DNA of 64,000 bases from Amphiscolops sp. MND2022. Its lineage: Eukaryota. Below are positions 4,801 to 46,248 of the stretch, in pieces. The notes beneath the pieces are model-generated. The model did no database searches, was not told where the DNA came from, and saw only the letters and a list, made by a program, of their open reading frames with translations. The stretch is taken from contig OZ076414.1 in the NCBI GenBank assembly GCA_964187785.1, positions 40,982,001-41,046,000 on the forward strand, given 5' to 3'. How positions within the stretch are numbered: position 1 is the stretch's first letter; the number at the start of each line of letters is the position of its first letter. The position numbers were made by a program, and so were the translations under genes.

Positions 4801-5216
4801 CTGTAACAGAATTGGCGCAATCAACAAAAGAGTATATTACAATTGCTAAATTGATAAGCCAATAAAAGCAAATTTTTTGTTCTATTTGCATCAAACATTT
4901 CTGGTAATGTTTGTAGGTACATTAGAGCACCAGATATTATAACCACTCGACGAAATTATACTTTCCAAAGCTTCAGATTTTTAAATGGTGGCGAATGTTC
5001 CGAAACTTTTGTCATTGTTTTTTTTCGAGTCAATTAAAACTATTGGTTGGGCCTTTCAATATCAATTATTTCTTGGTTGGCTCAATCCAATATAGTGGCA
5101 ACTACTATCAATTCTTGTCCAGTACCTAATGACTTGATACTGACAAAATTTTGCACGTATTTTTTCAATGTCGGGGAAGTTGAAATGCTTACCAATTTCA
5201 GAGTTTTTAGTCGGCG

Positions 5217-5291
5217 AGTAGTTTGATTTTATATGGGACCGTGCTAAACACGGGGGGGGGGGGTTTGAAATTTTACAAAATTTTTGCCAAG
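5217..5291 (+). repeat. E1 left terminal inverted repeat
   Basis: Reverse complement of 22878-22947; differs only in G-run length (G12 versus C7). Confidence 0.95.
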
Positions 5292-5319
5292 CTTGTAAAT
5301 TTGTATATGTACACTTTTC

Positions 5320-5640
5320 TTCGCGTGACAAACGTCAAAAAATGATAACTTTCAGCTGCGTGTACAATCGTCTAAAATATTTACCTTCGCATTTCTGCGT
5401 GACCATTGTCAAAAATGATGTACTTTCCATTTCCGCGTGATAAAATGTCTAAAAATGAATAACTTTCTATTTCCGCGTGAATATCCTCAAATATGATCTA
5501 CTTTCTATTTCCACGTGAATATCATCAAAAATGATCTACTTTCTATTTCCGCGTGATAAAATGTTTTAAATTAACTTTCTATTTCCGCGTGACTATCCTC
5601 AAAAATGATCTACTTTTCATTTCCGCGCGACTAACGTAAA
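5320..5640. repeat. Subterminal tandem repeat, about 9 degenerate units of 37-41 bp with core TTTCCGCGTGA
   Basis: Core GCGTG/ACGTG/GCGCG recurs at about 39-bp spacing directly inside the left TIR. Confidence 0.85.
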
Positions 5641-6252
5641 AAATAACCAACCTACAAGCTAAATCGTTACCAAAAGTCGAAATTTGTTACCTTTCGACTT
5701 AGTATCTTTCAACAATCAGTTCTAGAATATTCCACAGACTCATCCAGGCTTTCTAAAGGCGGGGAACTTGAGAAGGCCGTCGCTTTGGTTTGTCTGGAAC
5801 TTTTGTTGATTTTAACACTTGTCTTGACTTGTCTTAATTAGTCACACTGAAAGATTGCTACAGCTAGCTTAAATCAACGAATGCCTACTTTTGTTCAAAA
5901 TTTAATAAATCACTGATTATACGCTAAGTTTTACAGTTTTCTTTGCAGATATTGTTCAAATAAAAGAAGAGATGAATTTTCTCGGGTTTTATTGTTTGGT
6001 CAATCTTTTGTCTAATTTCCTGGTGCTTTTTGTTTAGGTAATCATTCACAAACTTCTTGAGAGCACCTGTTTAGGCAAATCAGATGCAAATATCTTTTCA
6101 ACCTGACTATAGCACCAGAAAACTGAAAAAAAATTGTGAAAAGACATCTTTGAATCTTGCAAATTTCAACTGCCAAAACCCGAATTTTACCTCAAACTTT
6201 CTCAATACCTAATAATCTTCCTTCCATAGTAAACAAGTCGATTTTCCTCAAA

Positions 6253-6774
6253 ATGGATTACCTAAGAAGTGTTTGGGGTTTAGATCAAACTCGGGTCGGT
6301 TTTCTCGAATATGGACAATCTGCAACTTTCGAGCCCCCGGTGAAAAAATCTAAACTAGAGCCTGAAATAAAAGTGGAAGTTCTCAAAACTATTCCACTTA
6401 ATAATGAGAATGGTAGATCGGGAAAGCAACGTTCTCGTTATAGAGTTTTTGTTGTCGCGTCTGATGGAAAGGGGCTAGTCGGCCTAGGCATCAAAGTTCA
6501 TCGCAACAAAGAAACTGCTAATAAATGTGCCGGTGATCAAGCCAAAGCAGAAATGTTCCAAATATCTTTGAGCTCCTTTGATCCCGAATGTCCAGAAAAA
6601 CATACAATACCACAACAACTTTTCGGTGAATATGGAGACCTGAAAGTTACTCTAAATCCTGCCGCTCGAGACACTGGTATTGAATCCTCGCCTCTCGCAA
6701 GATTTCCTCTGCACCTCATTGGAATCAAAGACTGTGTCGTTATGCCTGAATCTAGTAAGATGCCTGCCTACTAA
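6253..6774 (+). CDS. Ribosomal protein uS5 (RPS2)-like protein carried by E1, 173 aa, intronless and diverged
   Basis: IKVEVLKTIP..GKQRSRYRVFVVASDGKGLVGLGIK..HTIP..G..GDLKVTLNPAARDTGIESSP....LHLIGIKDC aligns collinearly with uS5 [60 protein letters not shown]....LMMAGIDDC. First ATG is 6253; the track's 6157 start is TTG. Confidence 0.85.
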   Translation: MDYLRSVWGLDQTRVGFLEYGQSATFEPPVKKSKLEPEIKVEVLKTIPLNNENGRSGKQRSRYRVFVVASDGKGLVGLGIKVHRNKETANKCAGDQAKAEMFQISLSSFDPECPEKHTIPQQLFGEYGDLKVTLNPAARDTGIESSPLARFPLHLIGIKDCVVMPESSKMPAY

Positions 6775-6865
6775 ATTGTGAATGAAGACTTTTTTCTCAT
6801 GGTCTTGAATAAATTCTTTTTATAGCACAAAACGACAATTCAGCATCTTTCGCTTTGGCTACTTT

Positions 6866-7327
6866 CAATGCCCTTGGTAAAGACTTGCAGACGAAATAAT
6901 GGTGAGCAGAATTTATTTTGTTTCGAGGCCTAACTTTTTTCGACGTTGTTTTTTCTCATTCCCCTTTTCTAATCAACAGCAAATAAAAGCCATGATGTTT
7001 GTTGCGGTGTAGTCAACGCTTCGAACTCCTGGATTTTTTTGTTTGCTGTCGATCACCCACCCTTTGTGTCAATACATACTCAACAATTTTTAGGAAACGT
7101 AATTAACGGCACTTTCTTTCGTTTTGTTTTTTTCCCAATGCCATTGGTAAAAACTTGCAGACAAAATAATGATGAGCAGACTTTGTCCTGTTTCGAGACC
7201 TAACTTTTTCGCGGCTGTTTTTCTCGTTCCCTCATGTTAATCAACAGCAAACAAAAGCCTTGATGTTTGTTGCGGTGTAGTCAACGCTTCGAACTCCTGG
7301 ATTTTTTTTGCTGTCGATCACCCACCC
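6866..7327. repeat. Direct duplication of about 195 bp (6866-7062 and 7136-7327)
   Basis: Shared blocks such as TTGGTAAA(G/A)ACTTGCAGAC and TGATGTTTGTTGCGGTGTAGTCAACGCTTCGAACTCCTGG, ending GATCACCCACCC. Confidence 0.85.
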
Positions 7328-7920
7328 ACCATTTCTGTCGGAAAATGCACAACATTTTTTTAGATTATTATTTTTCTAATCCTCACTTTCAACCTTACTA
7401 ATGCCACTCTACGGTTATGTAACGTCAAACCTGTGACAACAATCAACACTACCAAATCCCTAGACCATATGTTTTCCAATTTACTGCGAGAGACCCAATT
7501 GAGCCTTTGGGCACGGCATTTAGTTATGAGGCCGCGATTAGACCTGCGGGGCGGTATTAAAGCCCAGTCTTTTGCTTTGCTAGCCAGTTTTTTTCAGTTT
7601 ACGGCTATAGGGCGGCAAAAAGGCCCGTGTTTTGTTTTTTAAATCATTTATGGACTAGTTTTTCAACTGAAATCTTTTATTCTACGGCTTTTGGGGAATC
7701 TTCGATGCTATTAGACAACACGACGGCGAATAAAATGAGAGCAAAACATGACTGAATTTCTGAAATTAGCAAAGATCTGATATCTACTTGAAAATTCACT
7801 CAAGTACTTGAGAACAATGCAAAGTGAAACAATAAACACGGCACCCATCTATACAGTGCGAGAATGGACATTTTCTTTCGCTCGGTTTACAACTTCCTCA
7901 TTGGACTGCAGGGGCGACTT

Positions 7921-9185
7921 TTAAGGCCAATATTCTGTTTTTCTAGCCAAGTTTTTTTCCATTTTACGCTTATGGGGGCGGAATTAGGCCTGCGGGGGCG
8001 GCATTAAAGCCCATCATTTTGCTTTTTACGCCAAGCATTTTCCATTTTACGCTTATGGGGGCGCGATTAGGCCTACGGGGGCGGCATTAAAGCCCAGTAT
8101 TTTGCTTTTTAAGCCAACCAATTTCCATTTTACGCTTATGGGGGGCGCAATTAGGCCTGCGGGGGCGGCATTAAAGCCCAGCATTTTGCTTTTTACGCCA
8201 AGCATTTTCCATTTTACGCTTATGGGGGCGCGATTAGGCCTACAAGGGCGGCATTAAAGCCCAGTATTTTGCTTTTCAAGCCAACCAATTTCCATTTTAC
8301 GCTTATGGGGGCGCAGTAAGACCTGCGGGGGCGGCAATGAAGCCTAGTATTTTGCTTTTTTACCCAAGTTTTTTCCATTCTACGGCTGTGGGGCTGCGAT
8401 TAGGCCTACGGGGGCGGCATTAAAGCCCAGTATTTTGCTTTTTAAGCCAACCAATTTCCATTTTACGCTTATGGGGGGCGCAATTAGGCCTGCGGGGGCG
8501 GCATTAAAGCCCAGCATTTTGCTTTTTACGCCAAGCATTTTCCATTTTACGCTTATGGGGGCGCGATTAGGCCTACAAGGGCGGCATTAAAGCCCAGTAT
8601 TTTGCTTTTCAAGCCAACCAATTTCCATTTTACGCTTATGGGGGCGCAGTAAGACCTGCGGGGGCGGCAATGAAGCCTAGTATTTTGCTTTTTTACCCAA
8701 GTTTTTTCCATTCTACGGCTGTGGGGCTGCGATTACGCCTGCGGGGGCGGCATTAAAGCCCAGCATTTTGCTTTTTACGCCAAGCATTTTCCATTTTACG
8801 CTTATGGGGGCGCAATTAGGCCTACGGGGGCGGCATTAAAGCCCAGTATTTTGCTTTTTAAGCCAACCAATTTCCATTTTACGCTTATGGGGGCGCAGTA
8901 AGACCTGTGGGGGCGGCAATAAAGCCTAGTATTTTGCTTTTTTACACAAGTTTTTTCCATTTTACGGCTGTGGGGCCGCGATTAGGCCTGCGGGGGCGGC
9001 TTTAATGCCCAGTATTTTGCTTTTTCAGCCAAGCAATTTCCATTTTACGCTTATGGGGGGCGCAATTAGGCCTGCGGGGCGGCGATAAAGCCTAGTATTT
9101 TGCTTTTTTACCCAAGATTTTTCCATTTTACGGCTATAGGACCGTAAAAAGACCTACGGGGAGCCTTTAAAGCCCAGTATTTTCT
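7921..9185. repeat. Tandem array of about 15 units of 83-84 bp, with an approximately 333-bp four-unit higher-order repeat
   Basis: Unit TCCATTTTACGCTTATGGGGGCGC(A/G)ATTAGGCCT(A/G)CGGGGGCGGCATTAAAGCCCAG(T/C)ATTTTGCTTTTT..; unit starts at 8041, 8124 and 8208; variant order from 8068 recurs at 8401. Confidence 0.95.
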
Positions 9186-9452
9186 TTTTAAAATCATTTA
9201 TGGACTAGTTTTTCAACTGAAAGGTTTTATTCTACGGCTTTTGGAGAATCTCCTATGCTATTAGACAACGTGTCAGCCAATAAAATGAGAGCAAAACAAC
9301 ATTGAATTCACAGTTACTGAAGCACTTGTAACTCCTTGAAAGTTTACTCAACAGGTACTTGAGAACAATACAAAGTAAAACAATAAACTTAGCACAAAGA
9401 CTAGCTAGTAGCATATGAAGTAACATGAAGTCCTATTCGCTCTCGCTGTCGC

Positions 9453-12400
9453 TCACAATATCCATCCGTCTCCTTTTGCTCTTTTTATCCGGTTCACAAA
9501 TTCATCATCGCTGAACCAATTGTCAAAATCGATTAGGTATTCCAAGTCTTCGATGGCGTTTGCCTCATCTTCCGTTAGTGTCTCAACAATCACGCAGTCA
9601 TTTGGGTCCGATTCATCCTCTTCTCCTTCGAGCTGGCCATCTGCATCGGAAACTTCTGTCGCCTCGTCGTCGATGAATGGGTTTCTGGGAGGGCTCTGCT
9701 CTTCTCGAGTTTCGTCCAAGTTTATTTCGCCTTCCAGCTCGGAATCACTGTACTCTCTTTGATGCATCCCCGGATCAGGTGGTGACCATGCTTCCATCAA
9801 TTCTTGAGTGAGTGAGATTGACTCGTCTTCAGGTAGTCGCAATGGTGACGGAAGACGGGCATTCCCCGGCATCGGAGCCTCATCTGGAAAGACTTGGGAG
9901 ATTGTGTTCTGGGGATCCATACCGTTTAGTTCATCCCAAGTGGGACTTGTTGGCATTTCTTCGTCTTCATATCCCCGTTCTGGTTCATCCAAAATATCTT
10001 GCTCAACATGAGTATCCCTGATCATGTAGTGACCATGGGGTAAGGTTGAGATGCCGTCTTCTAATACATAGCGCTTATCATCAAAGGAGCTCAGCGACAG
10101 CTTGCTGGTCTTGATAGTTTGCAATTGATGTCGGGTTGATCCGATCCGCGTGTTTAAGGTCTTGAAAGAATCACCCGTCTGCAGAATTGTTTTGAAAAGC
10201 TCATGTGTTAGCTTTCGTTGAGCGAATCTAGTGATGCCCTTCGCTGATAACTTTTGCTTCCCGCCTGCCAAGATGGAATACACTTTTGGCTTGAGGCCTA
10301 CAAATTCTTCGATGGGTGTTCCTCCTAGCTCATCTTTGAATTTGAGTGTTACCATTTTGTTGTCGGCGTTATAGAGTTTATGATCTGTGGGGTAATTTGA
10401 CAAGTCAAAATATTGACGCAACTCTGCGTTTCTGGCAAGCTCTTCATAGAAATCTGTGTTTCACTTCGTATAGCAGTGAGTCTGTGTCCGAGTACAACAC
10501 AAAGCAATTGAGATGTTTCTTCATCACATTGTAATGGAAATCAAACATGATGTATTTTGCCAAGTCTAGTACAGCAGCCCCAACTATTGTGGGTTTGTTC
10601 CACGTGATGGATCTTTTTCTTGAAGATATAGCTGCTAGATTCTCGTGGAAAATCTTGAACTCATGAAAAAAAGGGGTGTCTGTCCTCCACAGTAGAGCTT
10701 CGCTGTTGGCGATAAGGTGTACACTCACGCGGTTCCGTTTACTTTCCAGAGTTTTACCGTAGCAAGAATTGTTCATGAGTTTGAAGAAACTCTCTTCGAA
10801 CTTGTTCCGAGATTCTTTTCTCTTTGCGGTATTTAGCTCCATATATGGTTTCAACCATTTTGTTTGTTTGAACTTTAACACTCGATGTACTTTCTTCACT
10901 TCCATGCCAAGGCTAACGTAGAGCTTCAGTGTTATATAATGGACAGTATAGTTCTTTTTGTCAGACAGTGATTGAATCAACTTTTTATCTTGACTAAAAG
11001 GTCTAGTTTCACCCATCTTTTCCAACAACTCCTGTTGACTTTCTCCCAGACTTTTGTAGTAGATTCTTTCTTTTGTTGGAGCCAGTGGAAAATCTTCATC
11101 TCCATCATGAAGCTTATCGGGGTAATGAAAGTCCACTTCTAGAATGTATCCTTCTTCAGAGTCGTTAGATGTTTCCAATATTTTGCTCAGGTTAATGTTT
11201 TGAACTGTTTCAAAGCTGTTCAATGGCAGTGGTAGTTTTTCCATGACACCGCCATACAAGTTGTTTGCGTCGAGTAATACACCATATGTGTCATATTCTC
11301 CGGTGTTGTGGTCATCTAGGTATCTGTTGTTTGCCTTGAAAAGTCTCTTGTCAAACACTGAAGATACACCTCCTCTAATCATACTTTCAACCATTTCCAG
11401 GTGGGACCGATCAGTTAAAAGTTCAATGTCTGCCCGACATATTTTCAAGAAAGCATCGCCAGATAAGTGGGAGCAAGTAAAATAGTGTGCACTGTCCAAG
11501 CCATAGGTCTTATAACAGAGGCTACGAAATTCTTCAACCACGCATGCCAAGAGTAGAGTGTCAGTTAGAAGGTACAAATTGTGGTAATCACCCAAGTTTT
11601 CGCATTGGAACTGCTCGTAAACCTTTTCTGCGTGTTGCCATTGGTCCTCAGTAACCATAACTTCTCCATTGCGCAGCGAATCTTTCCATTGTTCTCTCGG
11701 TGGTAGCTTCTCTTCTTGAAACTTTTCAAAGTTGTCAAAGTAGGAGTATGGATAATAGCCCTTTTGATGTTAGAGGTTTCGTTCTTCTTTAGAATAATCA
11801 GGAAAGACTTTGTCAAGTATTTCAAACTTATCTTCTGGCAAGTATGAAACTAATTTTTCTAGCGAAGCACCCATGAATCGGTAGGAGTCTATAAATCGCA
11901 GATACTCGAATACTGTCTTTGTCACCCCATTTTTATCTTGGTATGTTCTAACAGGCACTCCGATTGACAATGTTATGTATTTTTCATCTGTTGACGGTAT
12001 TACATCAAGTTTGCAACCTTCGCAGATCCAACAAAATTGTGCTTCTTGAGGTCTTTCTGGTAGTGCATCAGAAAAGTAACGATGGTTTTGCTTTCTTGTA
12101 TTCATTTTCTGAGCAATTTTCTCAAGCGCTTCAATGAATTTCTCCATGCAGTTTTCAGAACGTTCAAGCTGCATGAAAATTGGTGTAGAGTTACCATGTT
12201 CAATACCAACAAAGCAGAAGCCGCTAGGTTGGTGTAGTTCAGTGATGCTTGTTGATTCGTTTTCTTTTTGGCAGCCGACTAGTGGTTGAAGGATTGATTC
12301 GAGATCAAAGTAGATATCCACCGGGGCAAACCATCTCGCAGCCAAGTGTTTGAATTTCAACCGGTTTTTTTCTGGCTGAGGCATTTTCACAACAGCGGGC

Positions 12401-13602
12401 TCGTGATGCAAACAACTAATTTGGTGACGTTTGTAAATGTTTTCATCAGTGCAGACGTGAAAACAATTTCGGCAGAGTACTCTCTGAAACAACGATGTTG
12501 TTCCTTTGATCAAGTTGACGAGTCTCAAAAGGTCCAGTATCAAAACGTAGTGATACTCCTGTCCATCGTCCACTAACAATAAATCAACATTGAAAGTGCT
12601 GTCTTCACGGGAAACGGTATAACGGAAGACGTGAACGTTGCACTTGTTCAATTTCTCAAATCGTAGCATTTGTCCATATCCCATGGGCATTTCATAGTCA
12701 CCCACTGCTTGATGAGCTAATTGATTTCGTGGGGAATACGTTTCAGGGTTCGTTCGTCTCCCAATTGAATCCCGGCTAGCCACATAGAGTAGAGGTCCAT
12801 GTTTCAGGTGCCACGCAGCTGTAAAGCAGTACAAGAAGCAATTGTGATCTTGTCGGTTGCGAATGTTGAGCAGTAAATGCGGTGCCTCCAGTTCTGTTGG
12901 AGTAGGAAGGTAGGAGGATCCCCGAATTGGATTGAAGGTGGCAAATTTAATGTCTAGCTCAATTATTTTATCCAGTATCCACCCACTTCCGGAAGCAGTG
13001 AATGTAAACAAAGTGTTGATCATTTTGTCCACTGCTGCCAGGAAATCGTTTTGCGGCAGGGTATTGCCGTAAACAGGTACCATGTGTGATCGAAGAAAAA
13101 GTTCAGTTTCTTCTCCATTTGTTGGCTTTGAAAGCTCTGTTCTCAAAACGAGTTGCATTTTCTGACTTGTGCGGTTTACATTCTCGCTAACCAGTTGATC
13201 AATTTGTGGTCTGACATCAGTCATGAACTGCAGCAAGTCGTTTTCTCCTGATCCAATAATTTTGAATACTTTGAGAGCCCCAGTGAAAGCGGATGAGATT
13301 GGTTTCGTTTTCTCCTTGATAGAATCGATAGGTGGTGGTAGTCCATGTTTCTCTAACAACTGTTTGAAGAATTTTTGGGCGTCATCGAATCCTACTCCAC
13401 AATAGACGCAAATTTTTTCCAGCTGGGTTCCGTGTTTCGCGCGGAAGTGTTGATCAGATAAAGCAACGGATAGTTCCATCTTGTGACAAACTTCGCATTC
13501 CATGGGGAAGAGATTAGCAGGGATTTTGTGAACATTTCGTCGATGTTGACGAAGATTGTTTTTGTTGGGAAATGTTTTTTGACACCTGTCGCAGGTTCTC
13601 AT
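9453..13602 (-). pseudogene. Protein-primed family B DNA polymerase (pPolB) of E1, split into three ORFs (13602-11770, 11658-10444, 10421-9453)
   Basis: N-terminal C2H2 fingers, YFDLES (Exo I), LLDANNLY (motif A), KLMNNSCYGK (motif B), YSDTDS (motif C), GLKPKVY. Two frameshifts and an in-frame deletion of the EndoVII/Exo II segment relative to E2. Confidence 0.95.
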
Positions 13603-14910: not shown

Positions 14911-15339
14911 TTAAATGAAATGTTTTACAAATCTCATTAGTTCTTGTTCACTAATATACGGAATTAGGGGAAAATGAGCGCCAAATACATAATGAGCTAT
15001 ATAAATGCAATAAAGTCCACACAAGTTTGAGTTTAAGTTTTGCAGAGGAGCTTGTATAATCTCTGTCACTTCTAAATCTGCAAAAGATAGTCGATTACGT
15101 ACGTAAGGATAATTGTTGAGTGCAAGTCCAAGTGGGTCGGCGAATAAAAACTTGTTGTTTCTGTTGCAAAGCAAAAGCCAGTGTGTTCCCATTTGAGTAG
15201 CTTTGTCTGAATTGACAATGATAAAGTTGTCATTCTTTAAACTGAGGGGAAAATTATCTGCTGCATAAACACCTGCGAATTTGTACTTCAAGTGTTTACA
15301 CTTGTTGATGAGAGTGCCCAACTGTAGTTCGTCAATCAT
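14911..15339 (-). CDS. Adenain-like cysteine protease (E1)
   Basis: GVYAADN, GTHW (His), FADPLG (Asp), Q..NSNLCGLYC (Gln/Cys); homologous to 36306-36737. Confidence 0.92.
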   Translation of the reverse strand: MIDELQLGTLINKCKHLKYKFAGVYAADNFPLSLKNDNFIIVNSDKATQMGTHWLLLCNRNNKFLFADPLGLALNNYPYVRNRLSFADLEVTEIIQAPLQNLNSNLCGLYCIYIAHYVFGAHFPLIPYISEQELMRFVKHFI

Positions 15340-29337: not shown

Positions 29338-29538
29338 ATGTCTCTGGTGATCATCGATCGGTTTTGGAATTCGTCAACAATCCAGACAACACTGCTTCAA
29401 CTACCCACAAAAACCGTAGATGAGACTAGTAAAGAGTCAATATGTCTTTCCTACGACACTCTGAGCATCATCCAGTTGATTGTTGCATTGGTTATTGTAA
29501 AGATAATTATATGCACTGTATTACATTTGCGTTATTGA
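29338..29538 (+). CDS. Small single-pass membrane protein (E2)
   Basis: Homologous to E1 21794-22003; NSS sequon and C-terminal hydrophobic helix. Confidence 0.72.
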   Translation: MSLVIIDRFWNSSTIQTTLLQLPTKTVDETSKESICLSYDTLSIIQLIVALVIVKIIICTVLHLRY

Positions 29539-29544
29539 AAAGAT

Positions 29545-29907
29545 ATGGCGAAAAACTTGTTTCATATCGAAGATGTTGTTCAGATACAGGAAAATAACCA
29601 AAAATTCCTGTTAAATGACTTCAGAGCAAACGTTATCATTCTCTGCAGACAACTGTTCCCTCAGCTGCCTCATGATTTGTTGATTAAACTCTGTCCCAAA
29701 AAACCAATGGTTAAATTTGATTGGTTCTATAGAAAGTGTAAGGTGTATCGTCTAACCTGTATTTTGAAAGCAGCAAATGAAGTTCTAACCAATAACAGTG
29801 AAGAGTTGTCTATAGAGGTTTCAACTCACGCATCAGTCAGTCTACTTCGTCTCGCTGTAGAAGTAAGAACCTTTCACAGTGACTTTCTCAAGAATTTGCA
29901 ATGCTAA
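29545..29907 (+). CDS. Accessory ORF X of unknown function (E2)
   Basis: 120-aa ORF; K.KVYRL motif shared with the frameshifted E1 copy. Confidence 0.7.
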   Translation: MAKNLFHIEDVVQIQENNQKFLLNDFRANVIILCRQLFPQLPHDLLIKLCPKKPMVKFDWFYRKCKVYRLTCILKAANEVLTNNSEELSIEVSTHASVSLLRLAVEVRTFHSDFLKNLQC

Positions 29908-30491
29908 GTCATCAACCTGTCGTTATTGACTTTGAGGGATTCCGTTACTCAGATCAACCTTTTGTCATCAAGGAACTATCAGTTAGAGGACACGATTACC
30001 ACGACACACTATTATTCAAACCACCGCACGATTCGAGTTTACTCTCCACCAAAGCGAAAAAAGTTTACTCTTGGTTATCCAAAAACCTGCATGGTCTTCA
30101 TTGGGAAGCGGGTGTTTACGACTACTCCTTCTTGTTCTGCTTCTACATTAGCCTCAAAATACGTTTCCCGAATATAACTGTTTATGCTAAAGGTATTGAG
30201 AAGTGTAAATACCTCCAGTGTTTCTTTCCCCACGTGATAGACTTGGATCAACTACATTGTCCTAAAGCCTCACAGCTACATCAAGTTCCATTTTTTGTGT
30301 GCCCCAACCACAATAGCCAATACTTACGTGATCACTGCTCCAGAGAAAAGGTAAATTTGTTCTTCGACTGGCTTTGCCGAGCAGGAAATTTGTGTGAACA
30401 TTGTAGCGGATTGAATGCTCAGAAACAAGCTACATCTAACGTTATCCCCGACCCTAACAATCAACATTGCAACAACGTGCAGTACAGCTAG
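29901..30491 (+). CDS. DEDD-superfamily exonuclease-like protein with a Cys/His Zn site (E2)
   Basis: VIDFEGF, KELSV, DLD, CPNH...HCSREK. Confidence 0.72.
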   Translation: MLSHQPVVIDFEGFRYSDQPFVIKELSVRGHDYHDTLLFKPPHDSSLLSTKAKKVYSWLSKNLHGLHWEAGVYDYSFLFCFYISLKIRFPNITVYAKGIEKCKYLQCFFPHVIDLDQLHCPKASQLHQVPFFVCPNHNSQYLRDHCSREKVNLFFDWLCRAGNLCEHCSGLNAQKQATSNVIPDPNNQHCNNVQYS

Positions 30492-30735
30492 CAAAGACGT
30501 GGACGATAGCACGATAGAACTAGCTAAAGAAGAGTACAAACTTGTTGGAGATCATAAGTTGTTGAAGAAAACTGTCTTGTCACTATCGCATTCTGAATAT
30601 TGTCAGCTCAAAACTTGTATAACTACTCTAGACTCGTTTCTCGATTTTATCAAGATCCAACATGTCCAATCAACGGATACATCGCCTGATGAAAGAACAC
30701 AAAATTCCACAAATATCAATTCCCAAACTCCCTGA
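30415..30735 (+). CDS. PC4/whirly-like putative ssDNA-binding protein (E2)
   Basis: Homologous to E1 20859-21209; LSLSHSEYCQLKTCI..LD helix. Confidence 0.5.
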   Translation: MLRNKLHLTLSPTLTINIATTCSTASKDVDDSTIELAKEEYKLVGDHKLLKKTVLSLSHSEYCQLKTCITTLDSFLDFIKIQHVQSTDTSPDERTQNSTNINSQTP

Positions 30736-30916
30736 ACCTGTAATTCTATCAGGCGTAAACGACCCCATGTTGCCAGAACAAATCGCCAAAGATTTGAAAG
30801 CAAGAGACGACATCCTTGAGGTGGCATACTTCCCAGCTTACAAAAAACTGAGGTGTCAATATCGAATCACATTCAAGAAAACAAATGACTTCAATATGTG
30901 CATGTTTTATGTTTGA
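30662..30916 (+). CDS. Conserved small Polinton protein (E2)
   Basis: Homologous to E1 20684-20950. Confidence 0.7.
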   Translation: MSNQRIHRLMKEHKIPQISIPKLPEPVILSGVNDPMLPEQIAKDLKARDDILEVAYFPAYKKLRCQYRITFKKTNDFNMCMFYV

Positions 30917-30972
30917 TCATTCATATACTATCCATTGTAATTGAAATTTGTCTCAAATCATTTTTTCTTGAA

Positions 30973-31254
30973 ATGGAAGAGCAAGCAGTTGATAGCCACG
31001 ACACCTCAATTGGCGTTAACCATTTGGTGTTTCAAAATAATCAGAGTGAAAGATCTTCTTGGAAGTTTTGTAATTCTACAACACTACCAAGATCAGAGGT
31101 CGTTTTTTTCTTCCAAGCAATTACATTACTAATTCTCATAATCACCAGTTTAGCAAAATTAGTGTTTTATGACGTTCCATGTGAAGATATGCCACTCTGG
31201 GTCTCACTCTTGTCGGCGGCAGTTGGATATATTCTTCCTAGTCCACACCTATGA
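30973..31254 (+). CDS. Small two-transmembrane-helix protein (E2)
   Basis: Homologous to E1 20360-20632; its stop overlaps the ATPase ATG. Confidence 0.75.
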   Translation: MEEQAVDSHDTSIGVNHLVFQNNQSERSSWKFCNSTTLPRSEVVFFFQAITLLILIITSLAKLVFYDVPCEDMPLWVSLLSAAVGYILPSPHL

Positions 31255-31979
31255 ATAAAATCATATTTACCAACGATCGGCTCTTTATGGCGGTTGTTGG
31301 CCCTGGTGGCTCCGGAAAAACACGGCTTATTTTTTCAATGCTAGCATCCCAAACCTTTCATCCTGGTTTCAGCAAAGTTTTTTACTTCTACAAAGAATAT
31401 CAACCACTGTTCAGCGAAATGGAAAAAAACTTGAATATCGAGTTTGTGCCTTGCCTTGATTTCGACATGATAAAAAATTTAGAAGACTGTCTATTGATTT
31501 TTGACGATTCTTGTGAAGAAATATATCAGGAGAAAGAATTCGTGAAGCTAGCAGTTGCTGGTAGACACAAAAAAGTTCATTGCATTTTCGTTAAACACAA
31601 CCTATTCCATCAAAGCAAGTGGTCGCGTACAATTGATCTCAACACAACTCATATCGTTTTATTCAAATCACCTCGCGATTTACAACAGATTGATCATTTT
31701 GGACGGCAGCTGAAAAAAGTAGAATTTCTGAGAGATTGTTACACTCAGGCAACTGCATTGCCTTACGGACATTTACTCATAGACTTGGATCCCAAAACAA
31801 GTGAAGTTTTACGTTTTGGTTCGAATATTACGGCTCCCGGACCAACGATATTCCATTTACCGTCAGCAATCGCGAAAGAAACCGATCTCGACAATGAACG
31901 AGAAAGACGCGCATACACTGAAGCTCTGGCAAAACAGAAAAACAAAGAAAGACTACAAAAAATTTCTTTGCCAGTGTGA
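31251..31979 (+). CDS. A32/FtsK-HerA-type packaging ATPase (E2)
   Basis: GPGGSGKT, LLIFDD, AGRH. Confidence 0.95.
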   Translation: MNKIIFTNDRLFMAVVGPGGSGKTRLIFSMLASQTFHPGFSKVFYFYKEYQPLFSEMEKNLNIEFVPCLDFDMIKNLEDCLLIFDDSCEEIYQEKEFVKLAVAGRHKKVHCIFVKHNLFHQSKWSRTIDLNTTHIVLFKSPRDLQQIDHFGRQLKKVEFLRDCYTQATALPYGHLLIDLDPKTSEVLRFGSNITAPGPTIFHLPSAIAKETDLDNERERRAYTEALAKQKNKERLQKISLPV

Positions 31980-32199
31980 CCCTAACGCTATCACATTTTT
32001 GTGTGAATGTGCACTCAATATAGTGAACGGCAACGTCCCTGTGAATATCAGAAAACTCTATCCATTTGAGAGCCAATTAAAAATTTTGTGCAGAAACAAA
32101 ACGTCCAACAACAAACGCCGAAAGACGCTCTGTTCAGCCAAAGGAATCAAATTACTTCAACAGATCAGTCGGCCCATATCTTTATACTTCAAACGCTGA
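31894..32199 (+). CDS. Conserved small basic Polinton protein (E2)
   Basis: FLCECALNIVNGNVP; homologous to E1 19409-19717; first ATG at 31894. Confidence 0.75.
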   Translation: MNEKDAHTLKLWQNRKTKKDYKKFLCQCDPNAITFLCECALNIVNGNVPVNIRKLYPFESQLKILCRNKTSNNKRRKTLCSAKGIKLLQQISRPISLYFKR

Positions 32200-32873
32200 T
32201 GTCTCAACAATTCATTTTGATTCCAAAGGAGAACTATATCAAGAAACAGTCAAAAAGTTTAGAGATTTTAGAGGACGACACGGTGAATGAGAAGGCGAAA
32301 CTACTAACTTTACTACAGAGACAGAGAAAACCCAAGAGAACAGTCGGAGAAACAAAAACGCCACAAGCTTCCCAACCAAGAGCGTCTGATAGAGAAATAG
32401 TCGAGAAACGAGTGCTGAAATCGTTGTCAATGATGAAACCATGGCAACTAGAGAAATCGAAGCCAATACTTCGAAAAATTTACGATGACCCCGACATATC
32501 AATAAATGAAGAAGGCTTATTAACAGTAGGTGATCAAACCACTTCACTAGAGGCCAAAAACTTTCTCTTCGATCTCCAACAACCCAAAAAAGGACTACAT
32601 GATCCTGATTACAGGAGAATTCTCGAGAAGCTCGAGGTCTCTCCACACCTGATACCCAATTCCCAAGCTAAGAAATTATTACAATCATCCACGGGAAGGA
32701 AAAAAGTTGCAGTCAAACCAAGAATCAAAAGCCCTGGAAAACAATCAGCAAGAAGAACTCGAAAAATAGAAATCGAAGATGAAGAAGCAGAATCAATTGA
32801 TGAAGATTCTGAAGACGAAGCGAACACTTCGAAACGCTGGGATCGTCTCGACAGCAGAACAGAAGTCGCTTGA
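32199..32873 (+). CDS. Conserved Polinton protein of unknown function (E2)
   Basis: Homologous to E1 18774-19412; ATG at 32199 overlaps the upstream TGA. Confidence 0.75.
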   Translation: MSQQFILIPKENYIKKQSKSLEILEDDTVNEKAKLLTLLQRQRKPKRTVGETKTPQASQPRASDREIVEKRVLKSLSMMKPWQLEKSKPILRKIYDDPDISINEEGLLTVGDQTTSLEAKNFLFDLQQPKKGLHDPDYRRILEKLEVSPHLIPNSQAKKLLQSSTGRKKVAVKPRIKSPGKQSARRTRKIEIEDEEAESIDEDSEDEANTSKRWDRLDSRTEVA

Positions 32874-33768
32874 AGCTCTGTACAGAAAAGGTCCATCTGC
32901 CTACGGAAGTATTTACAATCTGTCAAAAGCAAGTAATCTTTCCAGACGAAAAGTTGAAACCTTTTTGCAGGGGAAAAATGCACATACAAAGTATCGCCAG
33001 TCACGTCGTCATTTTCCACGTCTCAAAGTAATTGCTTACGACATTAATGAAATTTGGTCAATTGATTTAGCTTATGTTGATAAGCTAGCCAAGTACAACA
33101 ATGGTGTCAAATACTTGCTTGTTGCAGTTGATGTGTTGTCGCGAAAATTGCGAGTTGAACCAATGCGGTCCAAAACAGCAGAAGAAACAGCAAAAACGTT
33201 CGCTAGAATGACATCGATGACAAAGCCCAAGAAAGTATGGTCTGACAAGGGTACTGAATTCAGAGGAGCATTCAAAGATTTTTGCAACCGGAAAGGAATC
33301 GAAACATACACTACACACAGTGAGGCAAAGTCCGCGTTTGCTGAAAGAAACATTCGTTCACTTAAAAACATAATATACAAACACTTGGAAAATATCTGGT
33401 CCTATCGATACATCAATGAACTTCAATCATTTGTGAGAACAATAAATTCCCGCGTCAACAGAATGACTGGAATGGCTCCTAACAAAGTGGCTCAAAAACA
33501 TGTTAAGCGACTACTGTCATTAACAGCGGAACGGTCGAGCAAGCTAGTTAGAACACCAAAATTCAAAATCGGCGACAGAGTCAGAATAGCGAAGCAAGAC
33601 TTACCGTTCAAAAAAGGATACAAACAAAGCTTCACTGACGAGCTGTTCCGTATAACGAGCGTGAAAACATTCAGTCCACCAACATATTCACTAGCAGACG
33701 CTGAAGGCGAAGACATCCAAGGTAAATTCTACGAACCAGAGCTAACAAAAGTCAAGTGGAATGGATGA
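32779..33768 (+). CDS. Retrovirus-like (rve) DDE integrase (E2), intact
   Basis: WSIDLAYVD, VWSDKGTEF, AFAERNIRSLKN, KKGYKQSFT.E.F, GKFYEPEL. Confidence 0.96.
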   Translation: MKKQNQLMKILKTKRTLRNAGIVSTAEQKSLEALYRKGPSAYGSIYNLSKASNLSRRKVETFLQGKNAHTKYRQSRRHFPRLKVIAYDINEIWSIDLAYVDKLAKYNNGVKYLLVAVDVLSRKLRVEPMRSKTAEETAKTFARMTSMTKPKKVWSDKGTEFRGAFKDFCNRKGIETYTTHSEAKSAFAERNIRSLKNIIYKHLENIWSYRYINELQSFVRTINSRVNRMTGMAPNKVAQKHVKRLLSLTAERSSKLVRTPKFKIGDRVRIAKQDLPFKKGYKQSFTDELFRITSVKTFSPPTYSLADAEGEDIQGKFYEPELTKVKWNG

Positions 33769-34618
33769 GTTCGATATTTACTTGGAGTCCACTGGTTCTA
33801 TGGAAACCTATCAAGATAACAAGATGGCTTGCTTTAGAAATGTTCTTTCTGAACCTCTTCAGCTAGAGGGAGACTGGAGAGTTGCCCTGGCTGAAATTAT
33901 ACACCCCACGAGCATTAAAAATGTTACTACTTCTGAATACATGATCTACACACCCAAGACACCCTATGACATGGTACCAAAAATTACGAAACATTCGGAT
34001 GCTACCATAATCAAACGAGAAGATTGGTCAAACAATGCCTTGTTCCCAGAGGGAGAATATATTAGCGTCGAAAAAATTTTGAAGCAGCTAAAAAAAGGAC
34101 ATGAATCAAGGAAACCGCTCGAGGACGCCACTGTTTCGGATGACAATTACGTAGAGCTCAAATTTGCTGAAGGCCATGGAATCAGTGTTCGTGACCGAAG
34201 TATTCTGGACGTGTTAGGGTTCCAAGGAACACCAGACAAAAACAGAGGAGGATACTTCATTGGGACAAACTCGAACGCTCAAATTACAAGCCAACCAATG
34301 AAAGGCGACTTTCCAGCTGACATAACAGCAGGAACAAACATCTTTTTCACCTATTGTAACATTATCGAACATCAAAAAGTTGCTGGAGTAAAGGCACCAG
34401 TGTTACGAGTCATTGATAGTAAAAGAAAGCTGAAAGACGGTGAGCTCTTCAATACATCTGCAACTACTCATAAATCATTCTCCGAGCTGCAGTTCAAGAA
34501 ACTGGTTTTGAGCTCAATTCGAGAAATTTTCATTGAGCTGGTTACACCTACAGGAAAATACGTTCCGTTTGTCGGTACAGGAAGGGTGGTGATCACTTTG
34601 AAATTCAGAAAGTTTTAG
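33761..34618 (+). CDS. Minor capsid protein (penton-like) (E2)
   Basis: Homologous to E1 17026-17880; typical Polinton position. Confidence 0.87.
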   Translation: MDEFDIYLESTGSMETYQDNKMACFRNVLSEPLQLEGDWRVALAEIIHPTSIKNVTTSEYMIYTPKTPYDMVPKITKHSDATIIKREDWSNNALFPEGEYISVEKILKQLKKGHESRKPLEDATVSDDNYVELKFAEGHGISVRDRSILDVLGFQGTPDKNRGGYFIGTNSNAQITSQPMKGDFPADITAGTNIFFTYCNIIEHQKVAGVKAPVLRVIDSKRKLKDGELFNTSATTHKSFSELQFKKLVLSSIREIFIELVTPTGKYVPFVGTGRVVITLKFRKF

Positions 34619-34622
34619 CTAC

Positions 34623-35003
34623 ATGGAGACGTACTACACACGTCAGGCTACGATGCCCCACTTCTCAGGGCAGACAAGACAAAGAGGTAGTGGCATTGGA
34701 TCTTTAGCGCTCGGTGTTGGACGAGTTGCCCTGCCATTTGCTAAAAAAGTTCTTTTACCAGCTGTAAAGTCCATTGGGAAAGAGCTCTTTGTTCAAAGTC
34801 TACCAGAGTTAATGGAAGTTGCAACAAATAAAAAATCCCTTAAAAAAGCAGCTAAATCAACTTTAAGAAAGACAGCGAAAAAACAATTCGGAGCTGGAAC
34901 AAGACAGCGGAGCAGAAAAACTAGAAAGCGAAACAGTCGACAAAAAAGAAAGCTGAAGAGAAGTCGGTCCGATTTTTTCTCCAGAGTCAAAAATGTTACC
35001 TAA
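34623..35003 (+). CDS. Small basic core/pX-like protein (E2)
   Basis: RQRGSGIG motif, strongly K/R-rich C-terminal half, FGAG putative adenain site. Confidence 0.72.
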   Translation: METYYTRQATMPHFSGQTRQRGSGIGSLALGVGRVALPFAKKVLLPAVKSIGKELFVQSLPELMEVATNKKSLKKAAKSTLRKTAKKQFGAGTRQRSRKTRKRNSRQKRKLKRSRSDFFSRVKNVT

Positions 35004-36309
35004 TAATTTACCATTTGAAGCTTCTCATAGTTCTCTGGATTTATTCGAACGGTCTCCACTCTTGATCAATTTCGAGGCTTCATTCGAACAAAAAGTTGGA
35101 CCACTCTATGCTCCTAATGGACCAACACTAGAATTTGAAGTTACTGGCGACCGGACAAACTTCATCGACCTGCAAAATATATACTTGGAGGTTAAATGTA
35201 GAATACTTCAAGCGAACGGCAATGACTTACGATATGACGCAGCAGCCGCAGCGAACAGTGATTTGCCCTGTTTCGTTAACAACTCCCTTCATTCTCTTTT
35301 TGCAGATTGCAATGTTACAGCAGAAGGTGTTCAAATATCATCGTCAAACGGTAATTACGCTCATAAAGCGTTCTTAGAAACTGAATTCTCTCATAACCAA
35401 GAAGCAAAAAACACTTGGTTAAAATGTCAAGGTTACTGCTATGAGAAAACACCAAACAATTTTACCGATGAAGTCTTCACCAAGAGAGTGGCCGAGACAC
35501 GACAGTCACAATCAATAACGCTCATTGGGAGAGTAGCGTCAGACTTCTTTTCTTGCGATAAATACCTACTCAGTGGTGTAACTCTACGCATAACTTTCCT
35601 GAGAAATCGGCCAGAATTCTGTTTAATTTATGATGCGGATGCAAAAGAATACAAGGTTGAAATATCGCAAGCCAATCTTTATGTGCGGAAAATGACGGTC
35701 ACTGAACAAAATTTTGCAGCAATTGAAACCACGCTGGCTAAAAGTAACGCGTTCTATCATTACACTGAAATTATACCGAAGACATTTCTCGTGTCAAAAG
35801 ATAGCAGGAGCTGGAATCATGAAGACATTTTCAATCATGAACCCATCAGAAGATTTGCGCTGGCAATGGTAACAAATGAAGCTTTCCTCGGGGCGAAGAC
35901 AGTGAACCCTTTTCATTTTCAAAAGTTCAACTTGCAAAGCATCACTGTATACAGAAACGGATACCCTATTGCTGGGACACCACTACAGACAGAAAATGAC
36001 AAAAAACTTTATCTCAATTCACTGGAAGCTCTTCAATTCAAAACCCATGGACATGGTGTTCCATTCGAAGACTATGAAAATCATTATGTTCTAGTATTTG
36101 ACCTGACAAGCACTCAACAGGCATCATATGATTATTTGTATCCCGAGTTGACGAACGCTTCGATATCTATTGATTTGCGGTTCAAAGAAGACCTTCCCTC
36201 AAGCGTCGAACTTTTCTTCCTGGGTGAAAAAGCATCAACCATTTACGTCAACTCCGACCGTCAAGTTTCAAAAAACAGACAACTTAAAACTAAAACTGAG
36301 ACAAGATGA
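34993..36309 (+). CDS. Double jelly-roll major capsid protein (E2), 438 aa, intact
   Basis: SSLDLF, GPTLEFEV.GD...FIDL.N.YL.V, NN.LHSLF, P.RF..AMV, NPF.FQ.F, FDLTST; lies upstream of the protease. Confidence 0.93.
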   Translation: MLPNNLPFEASHSSLDLFERSPLLINFEASFEQKVGPLYAPNGPTLEFEVTGDRTNFIDLQNIYLEVKCRILQANGNDLRYDAAAAANSDLPCFVNNSLHSLFADCNVTAEGVQISSSNGNYAHKAFLETEFSHNQEAKNTWLKCQGYCYEKTPNNFTDEVFTKRVAETRQSQSITLIGRVASDFFSCDKYLLSGVTLRITFLRNRPEFCLIYDADAKEYKVEISQANLYVRKMTVTEQNFAAIETTLAKSNAFYHYTEIIPKTFLVSKDSRSWNHEDIFNHEPIRRFALAMVTNEAFLGAKTVNPFHFQKFNLQSITVYRNGYPIAGTPLQTENDKKLYLNSLEALQFKTHGHGVPFEDYENHYVLVFDLTSTQQASYDYLYPELTNASISIDLRFKEDLPSSVELFFLGEKASTIYVNSDRQVSKNRQLKTKTETR

Positions 36310-36737
36310 TTGGCGAAGTGGGACTGTGGGAGCTCATCAACAGATGCAAGTTTTTGAAATACAAGTTTGCAGGAGTGTACGCCGCCGATAACTTTCCAAC
36401 GCGACTGGACCAAAATACCTTCGTTATTGTGAACTCTGACAACTCAGATGAAGCAGGCAGGCATTGGCTTCTCTACTGTAAAAATACAGAGGACTATGCT
36501 TTCGGTGACCCCTTGGGACTACAACTCCGAAATTACCCAAACATCAACAAACGCTTAGCCTATGCCGATTTGAACATAAAAGAACTCATAGATTATCCGC
36601 TCCAAAAACCTACATCTAACCTATGTGGACTCTATTGTATATATATAGCGCACTATGCTTTAGGAGGCAGCTACCTAACAATTCCTGTGATATCTGAGAC
36701 AGAACTGATTCGATTTGTTACACACATGCAACAGTAG
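36306..36737 (+). CDS. Adenain-like cysteine protease (E2)
   Basis: GVYAADN, GRHW, FGDPLG, QKPTSNLCGLYC. Confidence 0.93.
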   Translation: MIGEVGLWELINRCKFLKYKFAGVYAADNFPTRLDQNTFVIVNSDNSDEAGRHWLLYCKNTEDYAFGDPLGLQLRNYPNINKRLAYADLNIKELIDYPLQKPTSNLCGLYCIYIAHYALGGSYLTIPVISETELIRFVTHMQQ

Positions 36738-36909
36738 ATACTAACATATATGCACTAACTCAAACTTTTCAAGGAAACGGTCTTTGTAAATAACCTTTTT
36801 TCGTGTAAACTTCTGCTTACTTCATACTATTCTCAAATTATTCTCTTTCATTGAAACTTTCATCTACTCTCGAATAAATATTTTAAAGCGCAAGAATTTG
36901 TTTTAAATT

Positions 36910-37593
36910 CTAAGATTGAAGTACAAAATGAATAGTATCAGTTCTGATTGATCCATTTCCTCTCACCAAAATGTCCATGATTGTTAGAAAAACAGATGAA
37001 TGAGGTCCGTTCAGCAAAATACATAAACGATTCAGGAAATTTAAAGCACTTTCGGGCACTCGTTCAACTTTGTCGAATAACTTCAGGCATGGAATTTTTT
37101 CTTTGTTTTTCTTCGGGCGCTTGAAAAAAACATTTTCCCCCAATTTTTCATTGTAGTCAACAGCCAGCTGCAACCTCAAGATGATCTCGCCGTTGCGTTT
37201 CAATTTTCGGCATTTATGCAACAGGAAGAAATATGTAGAATAGAGACAAGGCACAATGTGTCCACGTTCGTCTGATTGACCACTGCGCGCAATTTCAAGA
37301 AGAAGATGATAATGCGGTAGTGAAAATTGACAGTAAAAATCATGTTCCTCGGAATGGAAGCCAAACACAAAGTTCACCGTAGACTTGAAGTCCTCTCCAA
37401 TTTTTGGTTCAGTATATGAAACAAGAAAGCGAAAATCTTTTCGGAATTTTAGGAAAAACTCAGGCGTTCGCTCAACCATTGCTTCCACCATTTTCCGACT
37501 GAAAAAAAGCTTTAGTTGATCGAGAGAAAATAATACCATCACACAAGAAAAACACTTGGTATAAACTAAAACAAAGACAAAAAGTGAATCCAA
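36910..37593 (-). CDS. E2-specific hypothetical protein (likely start about 37490)
   Basis: Long ORF antisense to the core genes; no recognised family. Confidence 0.6.
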   Translation of the reverse strand: MDSLFVFVLVYTKCFSCVMVLFSLDQLKLFFSRKMVEAMVERTPEFFLKFRKDFRFLVSYTEPKIGEDFKSTVNFVFGFHSEEHDFYCQFSLPHYHLLLEIARSGQSDERGHIVPCLYSTYFFLLHKCRKLKRNGEIILRLQLAVDYNEKLGENVFFKRPKKNKEKIPCLKLFDKVERVPESALNFLNRLCILLNGPHSSVFLTIMDILVRGNGSIRTDTIHFVLQS

Positions 37594-37628
37594 AGTAATG
37601 TAAATTATTAGCTTTTATACAAACGCTT

Positions 37629-37982
37629 TCAAATAGTACTAGAAGGTGACAATTTTTTAAATTTGGAAACGCCAGTAGCAATAATTTGTTTCTCGGGTCG
37701 CTTCAGGATTCCAACCACACATTCTTTCACAGGTTGTGGTCCCATGTTGATATTCTCCGAATTATTGATCAAAGCTTGAAACTCCGGTGCGGTTAGGGTA
37801 ATGCGTTGGTCGATGTGAAATTCGCCATCAGAGCCCATTTTGAACAGCTTCAGGAAGATGTAAGTTCCGGTCGCTTCGTAGGTCTTCGTCGTGACTCTGA
37901 TCAATCTCCTATCGGTTTTCGAAATATCGAGGAAACTGTCGCCAAATTCTTGGTCAGTAGTGGAAGTAAAACGACCGCTCAT
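37629..37982 (-). CDS. E2-specific PC4-like putative ssDNA-binding protein
   Basis: RRLIRVTTKTY..TGTYIFLKLFK..SDGEF..DQRITLTAPEFQAL has the beta-beta-beta-helix pattern of PC4. Tentative. Confidence 0.55.
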   Translation of the reverse strand: MSGRFTSTTDQEFGDSFLDISKTDRRLIRVTTKTYEATGTYIFLKLFKMGSDGEFHIDQRITLTAPEFQALINNSENINMGPQPVKECVVGILKRPEKQIIATGVSKFKKLSPSSTI

Positions 37983-38435
37983 TGCTTTTGAGAGATCAAA
38001 TTGAAAACGGAATAATGATCACAACTGATTGCAAAATCTCGAAAGTGTAGAATAGCCGCAGTTTTCAGGTAAAAAGAAGTTTACATTTAATGTTTGAGTT
38101 CAGATTTCACTTGTTAGCGTTGAGTCTAGACAAAGAAAACATTAAATGTTTACAAACAATAAAAATATCAAATAGTTTTCATCAAGTTTTATGCTTTTCA
38201 TACAGAGCAGAACAAAGTTAATCATTTTAATTGGCCAGCAATAAAAAATGACCAAAAATCAACTGTTTGTTTGTTAAACGTCTAGGAACTTTTATGAAAA
38301 ACAAATAAACGATGATGATTAATCGAAACTTTTCCGGTTTTAGATTCATTAAAACACAATTCGCTGTTATGAAAAGACGGTATTTAACTTGAAACTCAAT
38401 CATCGAAGAACCATTCTGTCTTTCGGATCTTCATA

Positions 38436-39104
38436 ATGAAATTCGACATACAAGTACTAACTGATTCCGACGAAGCTACACGATACACTCTGTATGAAAC
38501 TTGGTTCAATAGAAAGATCACAATAGTTCTCGAACAAAAAATCGCTCATTCCTGGGAAGTGATTAATTCCCTTTCTGTGCCTAAAGCAGTCTTGAACGTT
38601 TTACAGACAGACACGAAACTTATGAGCCTCACCAAGGGGCTTCAAGGTGAAGAATCAGCTGATAAGAACTTCGATCATAGCACTATTTATGATCGCTTCC
38701 AACTACCGCCTGAAGTCAGGAGAGTTTTATTCGAGCGGGACTGCGAGGAAATTCCCATGTCAGAGAATCAAATGGGATACTTCAGTGACCTAGAGACCCT
38801 TGAATGGTTTTGGGAAATTGTTCAAGAATCTAGTCAAAGAAAAGAAGTGTCACCGCCATCCCCATTGAAGACGCCACCCCAAGAAGACAGCACTCAAGAG
38901 GGTGAAATGCTTTTGGAAGACGAACAAGAACCGCAGCGAATGGTTGAGCAGGCGGATGACAGCACTTTCATATGCGAAACATCAGTCACACCAACAAGAA
39001 AACAGTCATCAGATGACGCATTGTGCCCACCAGCGCCAAAGAAGAGCAGGATTCCTAGAGTTAACCCATCCGAACTGGAAACTTTAGATTTTTCACAGTT
39101 TTGA
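38436..39104 (+). CDS. E2-specific hypothetical protein with acidic/Ser-Pro-rich C-terminus and NLS-like PKKSR
   Basis: 222-aa ATG-initiated ORF between the protease and pPolB. Confidence 0.65.
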   Translation: MKFDIQVLTDSDEATRYTLYETWFNRKITIVLEQKIAHSWEVINSLSVPKAVLNVLQTDTKLMSLTKGLQGEESADKNFDHSTIYDRFQLPPEVRRVLFERDCEEIPMSENQMGYFSDLETLEWFWEIVQESSQRKEVSPPSPLKTPPQEDSTQEGEMLLEDEQEPQRMVEQADDSTFICETSVTPTRKQSSDDALCPPAPKKSRIPRVNPSELETLDFSQF

Positions 39105-46110: not shown

Positions 46111-46248
46111 TCAAAAAATACCAAAAATAATGATTTTTCCCATTTTTTCCCTTAAAAAATCAATGAAAAATGGGTAAAAACGTTTCTTATCCACAAAAAA
46201 AACCTTCACACCATGGTTTCTATGCACCAGAAGCTTAAAAAAACTCAT

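Follow-up and report, generated by a model that had tools for sequence, protein, structure and literature searches.

Our analysis of a 64,000-nt stretch of genomic DNA (hereafter, the window) revealed a Polinton, E1, that carries close to its left terminal inverted repeat (TIR) a gene for a protein with both domains and the predicted fold of uS5 (RPS2), a small-subunit ribosomal protein. We estimate at roughly 85% the probability that this is a maintained, non-ribosomal accessory gene that resides in a cassette swapped between elements. The features of E1 are the following:

5211–5216, no strand: left target-site duplication (TSD), 6 bp, repeated at 22948–22953
5217–5258, plus strand: left TIR of Polinton E1, 42 bp
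5292–7900, plus strand: exchangeable terminal cassette with subterminal repeats, uS5 gene and hairpin; right edge approximate
5367–5644, plus strand: subterminal short direct repeats, repeat family D5
6253–6754, plus strand: uS5-like gene, exon 1, with both Pfam domains and the uS5 fold
6755–6825, plus strand: predicted GT-AG intron, 71 nt, phase 1
6826–6899, plus strand: predicted second exon, which encodes the final uS5 helix and the stop codon
6972–7053, plus strand: predicted long RNA hairpin, conserved apex at 7004–7019
7808–9271, no strand: 83-bp tandem array, from repeat analysis and element comparison
9453–13602, minus strand: protein-primed DNA polymerase B (pPolB), interrupted in E1, convergent with uS5
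14911–20363, minus strand: homologues of protease and ATPase, with putative integrase and major and minor capsid genes
22906–22947, minus strand: right TIR of E1, 42 bp

E1 has the hallmarks of Polintons (Mavericks), namely TIRs starting with AGT, a 6-bp TSD, a pPolB, an A32-type ATPase and an adenain-type protease, the last as a sub-threshold match. Pfam searches with the core ORFs returned DNA_pol_B_2 (1e-10), Pox_A32 (5.5e-5) and, under the Pfam cut-off, Peptidase_C5 (1.4e-3), so that the protease and ATPase labels rest on weak matches. The putative integrase and capsid ORFs had no Pfam match; they are so labelled from gene order and from 60–67% identity to ORFs of a second Polinton, E2. 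The uS5 gene sits ~1 kb inward of the left TIR and points towards the 3' end of pPolB, and the subterminal repeats at 5367–5644 are its candidate promoter region. The initial annotation of this DNA, made from the sequence alone, had placed the ORF in a TSD-bounded element, antisense to the core genes, and had noted that it stays open where other E1 genes are broken; all of this was confirmed, with the pPolB, integrase and major capsid frames interrupted in the E1 copy. E2 occupies positions 28719–46664, with 100-bp TIRs, a 6-bp TSD and an open 1422-aa pPolB. Its core proteins are 46–77% identical to those of E1, and its matching end holds a 175-bp tandem array without uS5. At the opposite end both elements carry a small EGF-like ORF, membrane-anchored or secreted (22452–22721 in E1, with a Pfam EGF match at 4.8e-5; 28950–29279 in E2), and a tRNA-like stretch was seen by eye just inside the right TIR of E1 (~22806–22880; not called by ARAGORN).

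The ORF at 6253–6774 (plus strand, 173 aa) matched Ribosomal_S5 (E=1.1e-8) and S5_C (E=3.3e-6), both above the Pfam cut-off, and its top PDB sequence matches were eukaryotic RPS2 (E ~1e-16), in agreement with the initial recognition of both uS5 domains and of the missing Gly/Arg-rich N-terminus. The S5_C match ends at profile position 44 of 71; the coding sequence for the last helix follows 70 nt downstream, in a different frame. The two exons can be joined in phase 1 by splicing from a GT donor at 6755 to an AG acceptor that ends at 6825. Judging from these reading frames, the gene, at first described as intronless, is probably not so. Since predicted exon 2 encodes the last helix, what is missing is just the tail that would follow it, and the earlier claim of a lost C-terminal part applies to the tail and not to the helix. 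When 69 loci were examined (6 of them unscorable, and 3 subgroup copies broken at the intron site), the intron was found in 23 copies, all from the window's subgroup, always in phase 1 and 70–177 nt long. Introns of different subfamilies match at only 32–50% of positions, yet exon 2 is still recognisable, and groups outside this subgroup encode the last helix in frame, without an intron. The database protein P0004, from the same subgroup, reads uninterrupted through the helix, with the junction residue as predicted. The host RPS2 genes L046 and L047, a pair with 98% protein identity, dS ~0.35–0.44 and the intron at the same site, each contain one phase-1 intron with the same codon count before the last helix; counted from upstream, the host intron is one codon nearer. 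In the trees, the intron-bearing Polinton genes constitute one clade nested among intronless ones; the intron therefore either arrived by DNA-level capture and was then lost several times, or arose a single time at a site that happens to coincide. We rejected the idea that exon 2 was recaptured from the host, because exon 2 resembles that of the intronless sister L042. In addition, a GT donor-like motif 2–10 nt past the stop codon, in the window (~6902) and in L010, L020, L034, L038 and L039, suggests a possible 3'-UTR intron.

The uS5 gene is not a one-off retrocopy. We identified at least 150 genome matches to the protein, at 30–100% identity (150 scored of 361 candidates), and additional searches of the genome found further uS5 places beyond these. 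Forty loci fetched with 5-kb flanks comprised 36 Polinton-type loci, 2 host RPS2 genes and 2 other S5 fragments, and a convergent pPolB was present within 5 kb in 30 of the 36. When pPolB loci were chosen for having no listed uS5 nearby, 16 of 20 held a more divergent uS5, although these loci were drawn from the best 150 of 2062 candidates for the pPolB of E1, so that the count describes the relatives of E1 and not all Polintons. Two of the other four look deleted or rearranged and two have other cargo; the latter occupies the same terminal slot (L089:2117-5713 and L090:2074-5466) and consists of ORFs of ~420 and 210–240 aa without a Pfam match. Single linkage at 60% identity sorted 65 proteins into 19 groups. 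Tandem runs were also observed, one of uS5-like fragments or genes with a 748-bp period (G000:C12:37258358-37273669) and one of five copies (G000:C7:42172001-42189140), as were inverted uS5 gene pairs 11–13 kb apart (L008/L009 and L013/L014), which are possibly elements with a cassette at both ends. The best genome identities of the database relatives P0004 and P0203 are 65% and 48%; as neither is in the assembly at high identity, the family extends to other genomes. BFVD contained no uS5 match, pattern scans of IMG/VR viral contigs with two single proteins recovered no relative, and a metagenome scan returned 26 loci at 27–44% identity, which by their table entries look like ordinary uS5.

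Statistical analysis indicated purifying selection on the family. Eight disjoint, moderately diverged pairs gave a pooled pN/pS of 0.37 (p=5e-15, uncorrected for multiple hits); six of the eight were individually significant, and the pair with the window copy gave 0.55 (p=0.059). Between subfamilies, maximum-likelihood dN/dS ranged from 0.01 to 0.19, with dN of 0.16–0.48 and dS near or at saturation. The youngest copies look neutral (0 synonymous and 4 non-synonymous changes in comparison to L002), as expected after insertion, which means that the window copy may be decaying; some uS5 copies in the genome are broken. The proposal of the initial annotation that a eukaryotic-type uS5 was captured, exapted and retained under purifying selection is thus upheld by the genome-wide copies, pN/pS and the trees. 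Profile matches were found, and the gene is not a single copy with dN/dS near 1.

Comparison of elements indicated that the uS5 region is likely exchanged separately from the rest of the element. Eight elements whose uS5 is only 24–47% identical to that of the window match E1 at 90–100% across the core segments compared (pPolB, protease, capsid, integrase and ATPase where present; one element lacks two of them), a backbone match equal to that of two elements with 92–97% identical uS5. The intergenic segment between those elements and E1 is 82–98% identical. Positions 5292–7900, on the other hand, were compared with 20 listed elements that carry a different uS5 type; 19 have no DNA match there, and the exception, L045, has only the subterminal repeats in common with E1 in this stretch. 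Elements with other uS5 types share the ~75-bp TIR end, a sequence also present in elements with unrelated cassettes, and then everything from the 83-bp array inward. Near-identical backbones with diverged uS5 mean that the stretch from TIR to array behaves as an exchangeable cassette, and crossover in the 83-bp array is likely to be the simplest reading of the exchange.

Phylogenetic analysis with only animal outgroups placed all 35 Polinton-type proteins in one clade (100/100) inside the host-like RPS2 group (97/95). In a wide tree including archaea, bacteria and other eukaryotes, the Polinton proteins and two database proteins again formed one clade (99/96), on the eukaryote side (99/100) and outside, or sister to, all cellular RPS2. 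An AU test against grouping the host with the Polintons gave p=0.024, with long branches in play. A eukaryotic-type source is therefore supported, but the placement beside the host differs between trees. We infer that a eukaryotic gene was captured a single time, long ago. For one variant, archaeal clusters came out on top by Atlas features (0.89), which is a lead only. Exon 1 of host RPS2 is 90% identical to the cluster that holds Convolutriloba macropyga RPS2, which makes an acoel the probable host.

Structure prediction agreed with the domain assignment. AlphaFold models of window exon 1 (pLDDT 80.6) and of the intronless relative L042 (pLDDT 81.9) lie ~2 Å RMSD from uS5 chains over ~130 and ~154 columns, respectively, although the alignments used for folding held only homologues (including 11 RPS2 rows for L042), so that the folds are not independent of sequence homology. 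With both domains over the cut-off and the predicted fold, the protein belongs to the uS5 family. The sequence on this fold has been extensively remodelled. At 79 core positions that are conserved across 17 eukaryotic RPS2 proteins, the average retention in 25 Polinton proteins is 46% for non-polar and 29% for polar residues; for 10 archaeal proteins the figures on the same columns are 65% and 47%. Almost nothing is left of the hairpin-loop and RRGYWG residues, and Lys83, Gly113, Ala129, Ala133 and Gly193 (host numbering) are the only residues present in every one of the 25. Core net charge ranges from +1 (window) to +17, in comparison to +16 for host RPS2, and three representatives of the intron-bearing subgroup have +1 to +3. 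The window's group has its own conserved N-terminal start. An NLS-like PPVKKSKL, initially read as a new feature, has not been preserved in sister subfamilies. In the alignment with host RPS2, the Pro and the first Lys of this motif fall on conserved Pro62 and Lys64; the NLS reading was rejected as the motif is not conserved.

Downstream of the uS5 gene, the window's group has a hairpin with a fixed-sequence apex, a 6-bp stem and a 4-nt loop, which caps a long variable helix; a second copy of the apex (7272–7287) derives from a 268-bp duplication. In 12 sequences, 81% of the cells are paired, with 21 double changes, and 0 of 500 shuffles scored as high, the scored structure being derived from the same 12 sequences and the shuffle ignoring their relatedness; slid controls gave 33–52%, and two of the five measures in the shuffle test were not exceptional. 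Sense-strand folding z-scores were −3.8 to −7.1 in the six subgroup members folded (6/6). Five antisense controls gave −1.0 to −4.4, with the sense strand stronger in four of the five comparisons; for L042, antisense folding equals sense folding in strength. A strong hairpin (z ≤ −4) was detected in 8 of 28 Polinton representatives, i.e., all seven of the subgroup and L071, in a scan that picked the best window and used 25 shuffles. Rfam returned no match at E up to 5 in window positions 5200–9500, and SECIS, HDV-type and hammerhead ribozymes, snoRNA, pre-miRNA and VA RNA do not fit convincingly. A protein-coding reading of the block was rejected: third codon positions are equally fixed and the pairing covaries, which makes a nucleic-acid element more likely. 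Other uS5 groups have different conserved downstream motifs that fold weakly. In L045, L051, L052, L056, L057, L063, L069 and L095 a CACC-like tract followed by GGTG lies 90–380 nt after the stop, and L074, L079 and L087 share a third type of conserved block.

How such a cassette might act is a more tentative matter. In the sequence of events that we propose, Polintons would have captured a eukaryotic-type uS5 once, long ago; transcription would run from the element end through the cassette; the uS5-like protein would bind the RNA of its own cassette and thereby tune the processing of the transcript running towards pPolB; cassettes would be exchanged among near-identical elements by crossover in the shared tandem array; and a rare-type advantage, through self/non-self specificity among co-resident elements, would keep many old variants. 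That the uS5-fold product is a cassette-specific regulator binding the structured RNA just downstream is a proposal we advance tentatively, with odds somewhat against it. The uS5 N-domain is dsRNA-binding-like (PMC10216425, in the part available), and an RNA-binding ancestral fold next to a conserved RNA element particular to each cassette type favours a regulator over a decoy. Nevertheless, the subgroup with the clearest hairpin has lost most of its positive charge, the strong hairpin is limited to 8 of the 28 representatives, and with protein type and RNA type in one cassette, their association is expected from linkage alone. It would be bolder still, and we think it rather unlikely, that the uS5-fold proteins, each with the structured RNA of its own cassette, form a multi-allelic specificity system in which swapping lets an element escape control by resident relatives; equally speculative is the thought that such a system might be the eukaryotic equivalent of the immunity modules of phages, assembled around a ribosomal protein.

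Old alleles under purifying selection that are exchanged as blocks are what a specificity module would give, and an arms-race gene would give them as well. The protein may thus be a decoy or mimic that engages a host factor recognising the uS5 fold (a uS5 partner such as PRMT3 or ZNF277, a ligase involved in quality control, or a factor acting in silencing or immunity), with an arms race driving diversity and swapping, which we consider possible but doubtful. It would account for a fold that is kept while the rRNA-type surface and charge erode, and for the few surface residues strongly kept (Lys83 in 25/25, Arg98 in 80% and Glu80 in 76%, host numbering). Moreover, many of the partners of uS5 are not ribosomal (PMC10216425), the PDCD2 homologue of the fly, which binds RpS2, is a repressor of some transposons (PMC4726551), and other Polintons carry BIR and PP1-binding host-interaction domains (PMC3597677, supplement), as far as the accessible portions of these sources go. 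However, PDCD2 needs the N-terminal FxxGFG segment of RPS2 (PMC13127195, accessible part), and no aligned Polinton protein contains this motif in either of two alignments; all that the window's subgroup has here is a shorter aromatic-Gly motif, whose relation to FxxGFG is uncertain. A PDCD2 decoy, raised by the initial annotation, is therefore unlikely on sequence. A single conserved target should also fix a surface, yet the variants share only 24–47% identity, and the conserved downstream RNA elements would be left unexplained.

Entry of the protein into pre-40S or 40S particles, either as a uS5 replacement favouring element mRNAs or as a dominant-negative slowing host translation, appears improbable. 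The whole two-domain fold is kept, one large group retains the helical segment preceding the core, several groups are basic, and phage bS21 and bL12 become part of ribosomes (PMC6375957, text available in part). On the other side, Gln88, Trp145, Lys162, Ser165, Thr205, Thr207 and Asn210 (host numbering), invariant in eukaryotes and archaea, are each kept in at most 28% of the Polinton proteins, loops have been deleted or have grown longer, there is no C-terminal arm and N-termini vary by group. Universal loop and surface residues and both arms of a 40S protein are thus largely lacking, which speaks against normal ribosome entry, and the diversity is far above that among cellular RPS2. Still less probable is an addiction or incompatibility module, in which the protein would do harm to cells or embryos, with the linked RNA, or else the architecture of the transcript, neutralising it: TIR-adjacent, intron-bearing cargo of a nematode Maverick has given rise to a toxin-antidote element (10.1101/2022.07.12.499685, partial text), and many old alleles and swapping fit allele-specific systems, but the predicted fold has no catalytic feature, no second ORF stood out as conserved in the cassette regions examined, and hundreds of copies coexist in one genome. 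A neutral passenger, i.e., an RPS2 retrocopy or DNA fragment drifting in the element, is almost certainly the wrong reading, being already contradicted by the selection results: non-synonymous changes are not depleted among the youngest copies, and there are broken copies, but frames are open across the 19 groups at the pooled pN/pS given above, the fold is kept at saturated dS, and splice sites are conserved around the introns.

The maintained accessory gene in a swapped cassette is, judging from sequence comparison, likely a cargo not previously described for Polintons in the literature searched. Titles and abstract openings gave no uS5 in a Polinton or eukaryotic virus, with subscription papers, Repbase entries and bioRxiv supplements as places that could hold a mention. 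The string 'ribosom' is absent from the main text of PMC8502044, PMC11131425, PMC3597677 and 10.64898/2026.10.13.758929, and uS5 has zero mentions in the accessible text of PMC6375957 and PMC11499249. For a BEL retrotransposon of a planarian, a uL16/RPL10 domain is recorded (PMC3597677 supplement file 3, as available), which gives a further mobile element with a ribosomal domain. A core 40S protein has been captured by a Polinton group, is present in most of the elements sampled from it and exists in at least 19 deeply diverged variants; the likely exchange of variants on near-identical backbones points to active frequency-dependent selection on animal Polintons. The family provides a natural allelic series for how a ribosomal fold gets repurposed, and a testable handle on mutual control among co-resident Polintons or by the host.

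In comparison to eukaryotic uS5/RPS2 (PF00333 and PF03719), the Polinton proteins have the same two-domain fold (RMSD ~2 Å), and the host intron has the phase of that in the window's subgroup, at a position within one codon; they are ~35% identical to RPS2, lack the RG-rich or FxxGFG extension and the C-terminal arm, have the conserved loops replaced and differ among themselves (24–47% identity). Ribosomal protein genes are a rarity in eukaryotic viruses, with eL40 and S27a named as cases in the accessible part of PMC13595923. Virus-encoded examples include eL40 (FloV-SA2), eL40 and S27a (ChrysoHV), eS30 (FBR-MuSV) and phage bS21 and bL12 (PMC11499249, PMC13595923 and PMC6375957); as far as the available text goes, these were likewise captured by a virus-like genome and are under purifying selection, but they are small or exchangeable proteins, whereas the Polinton uS5 is a remodelled core small-subunit protein with many alleles. 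Comparable cargo is that of nematode Mavericks (proteases termed WASP, and kinases termed KRMA), which, by the portion of 10.1101/2022.07.12.499685 available, is intron-containing, host-derived and located in a variable region by one TIR, with recombination between elements as we infer here. The present cargo differs in having a ribosomal-protein fold, in its presence in most sampled elements of the group, in the diversification of uS5 within one genome and in the conserved RNA elements downstream. In lambdoid phages, the N/nut and immunity regions are diverged regulator alleles that are swapped, with their cis element, as a block among similar backbones. The uS5 cassettes may work like these modules, an analogy that implies no homology.
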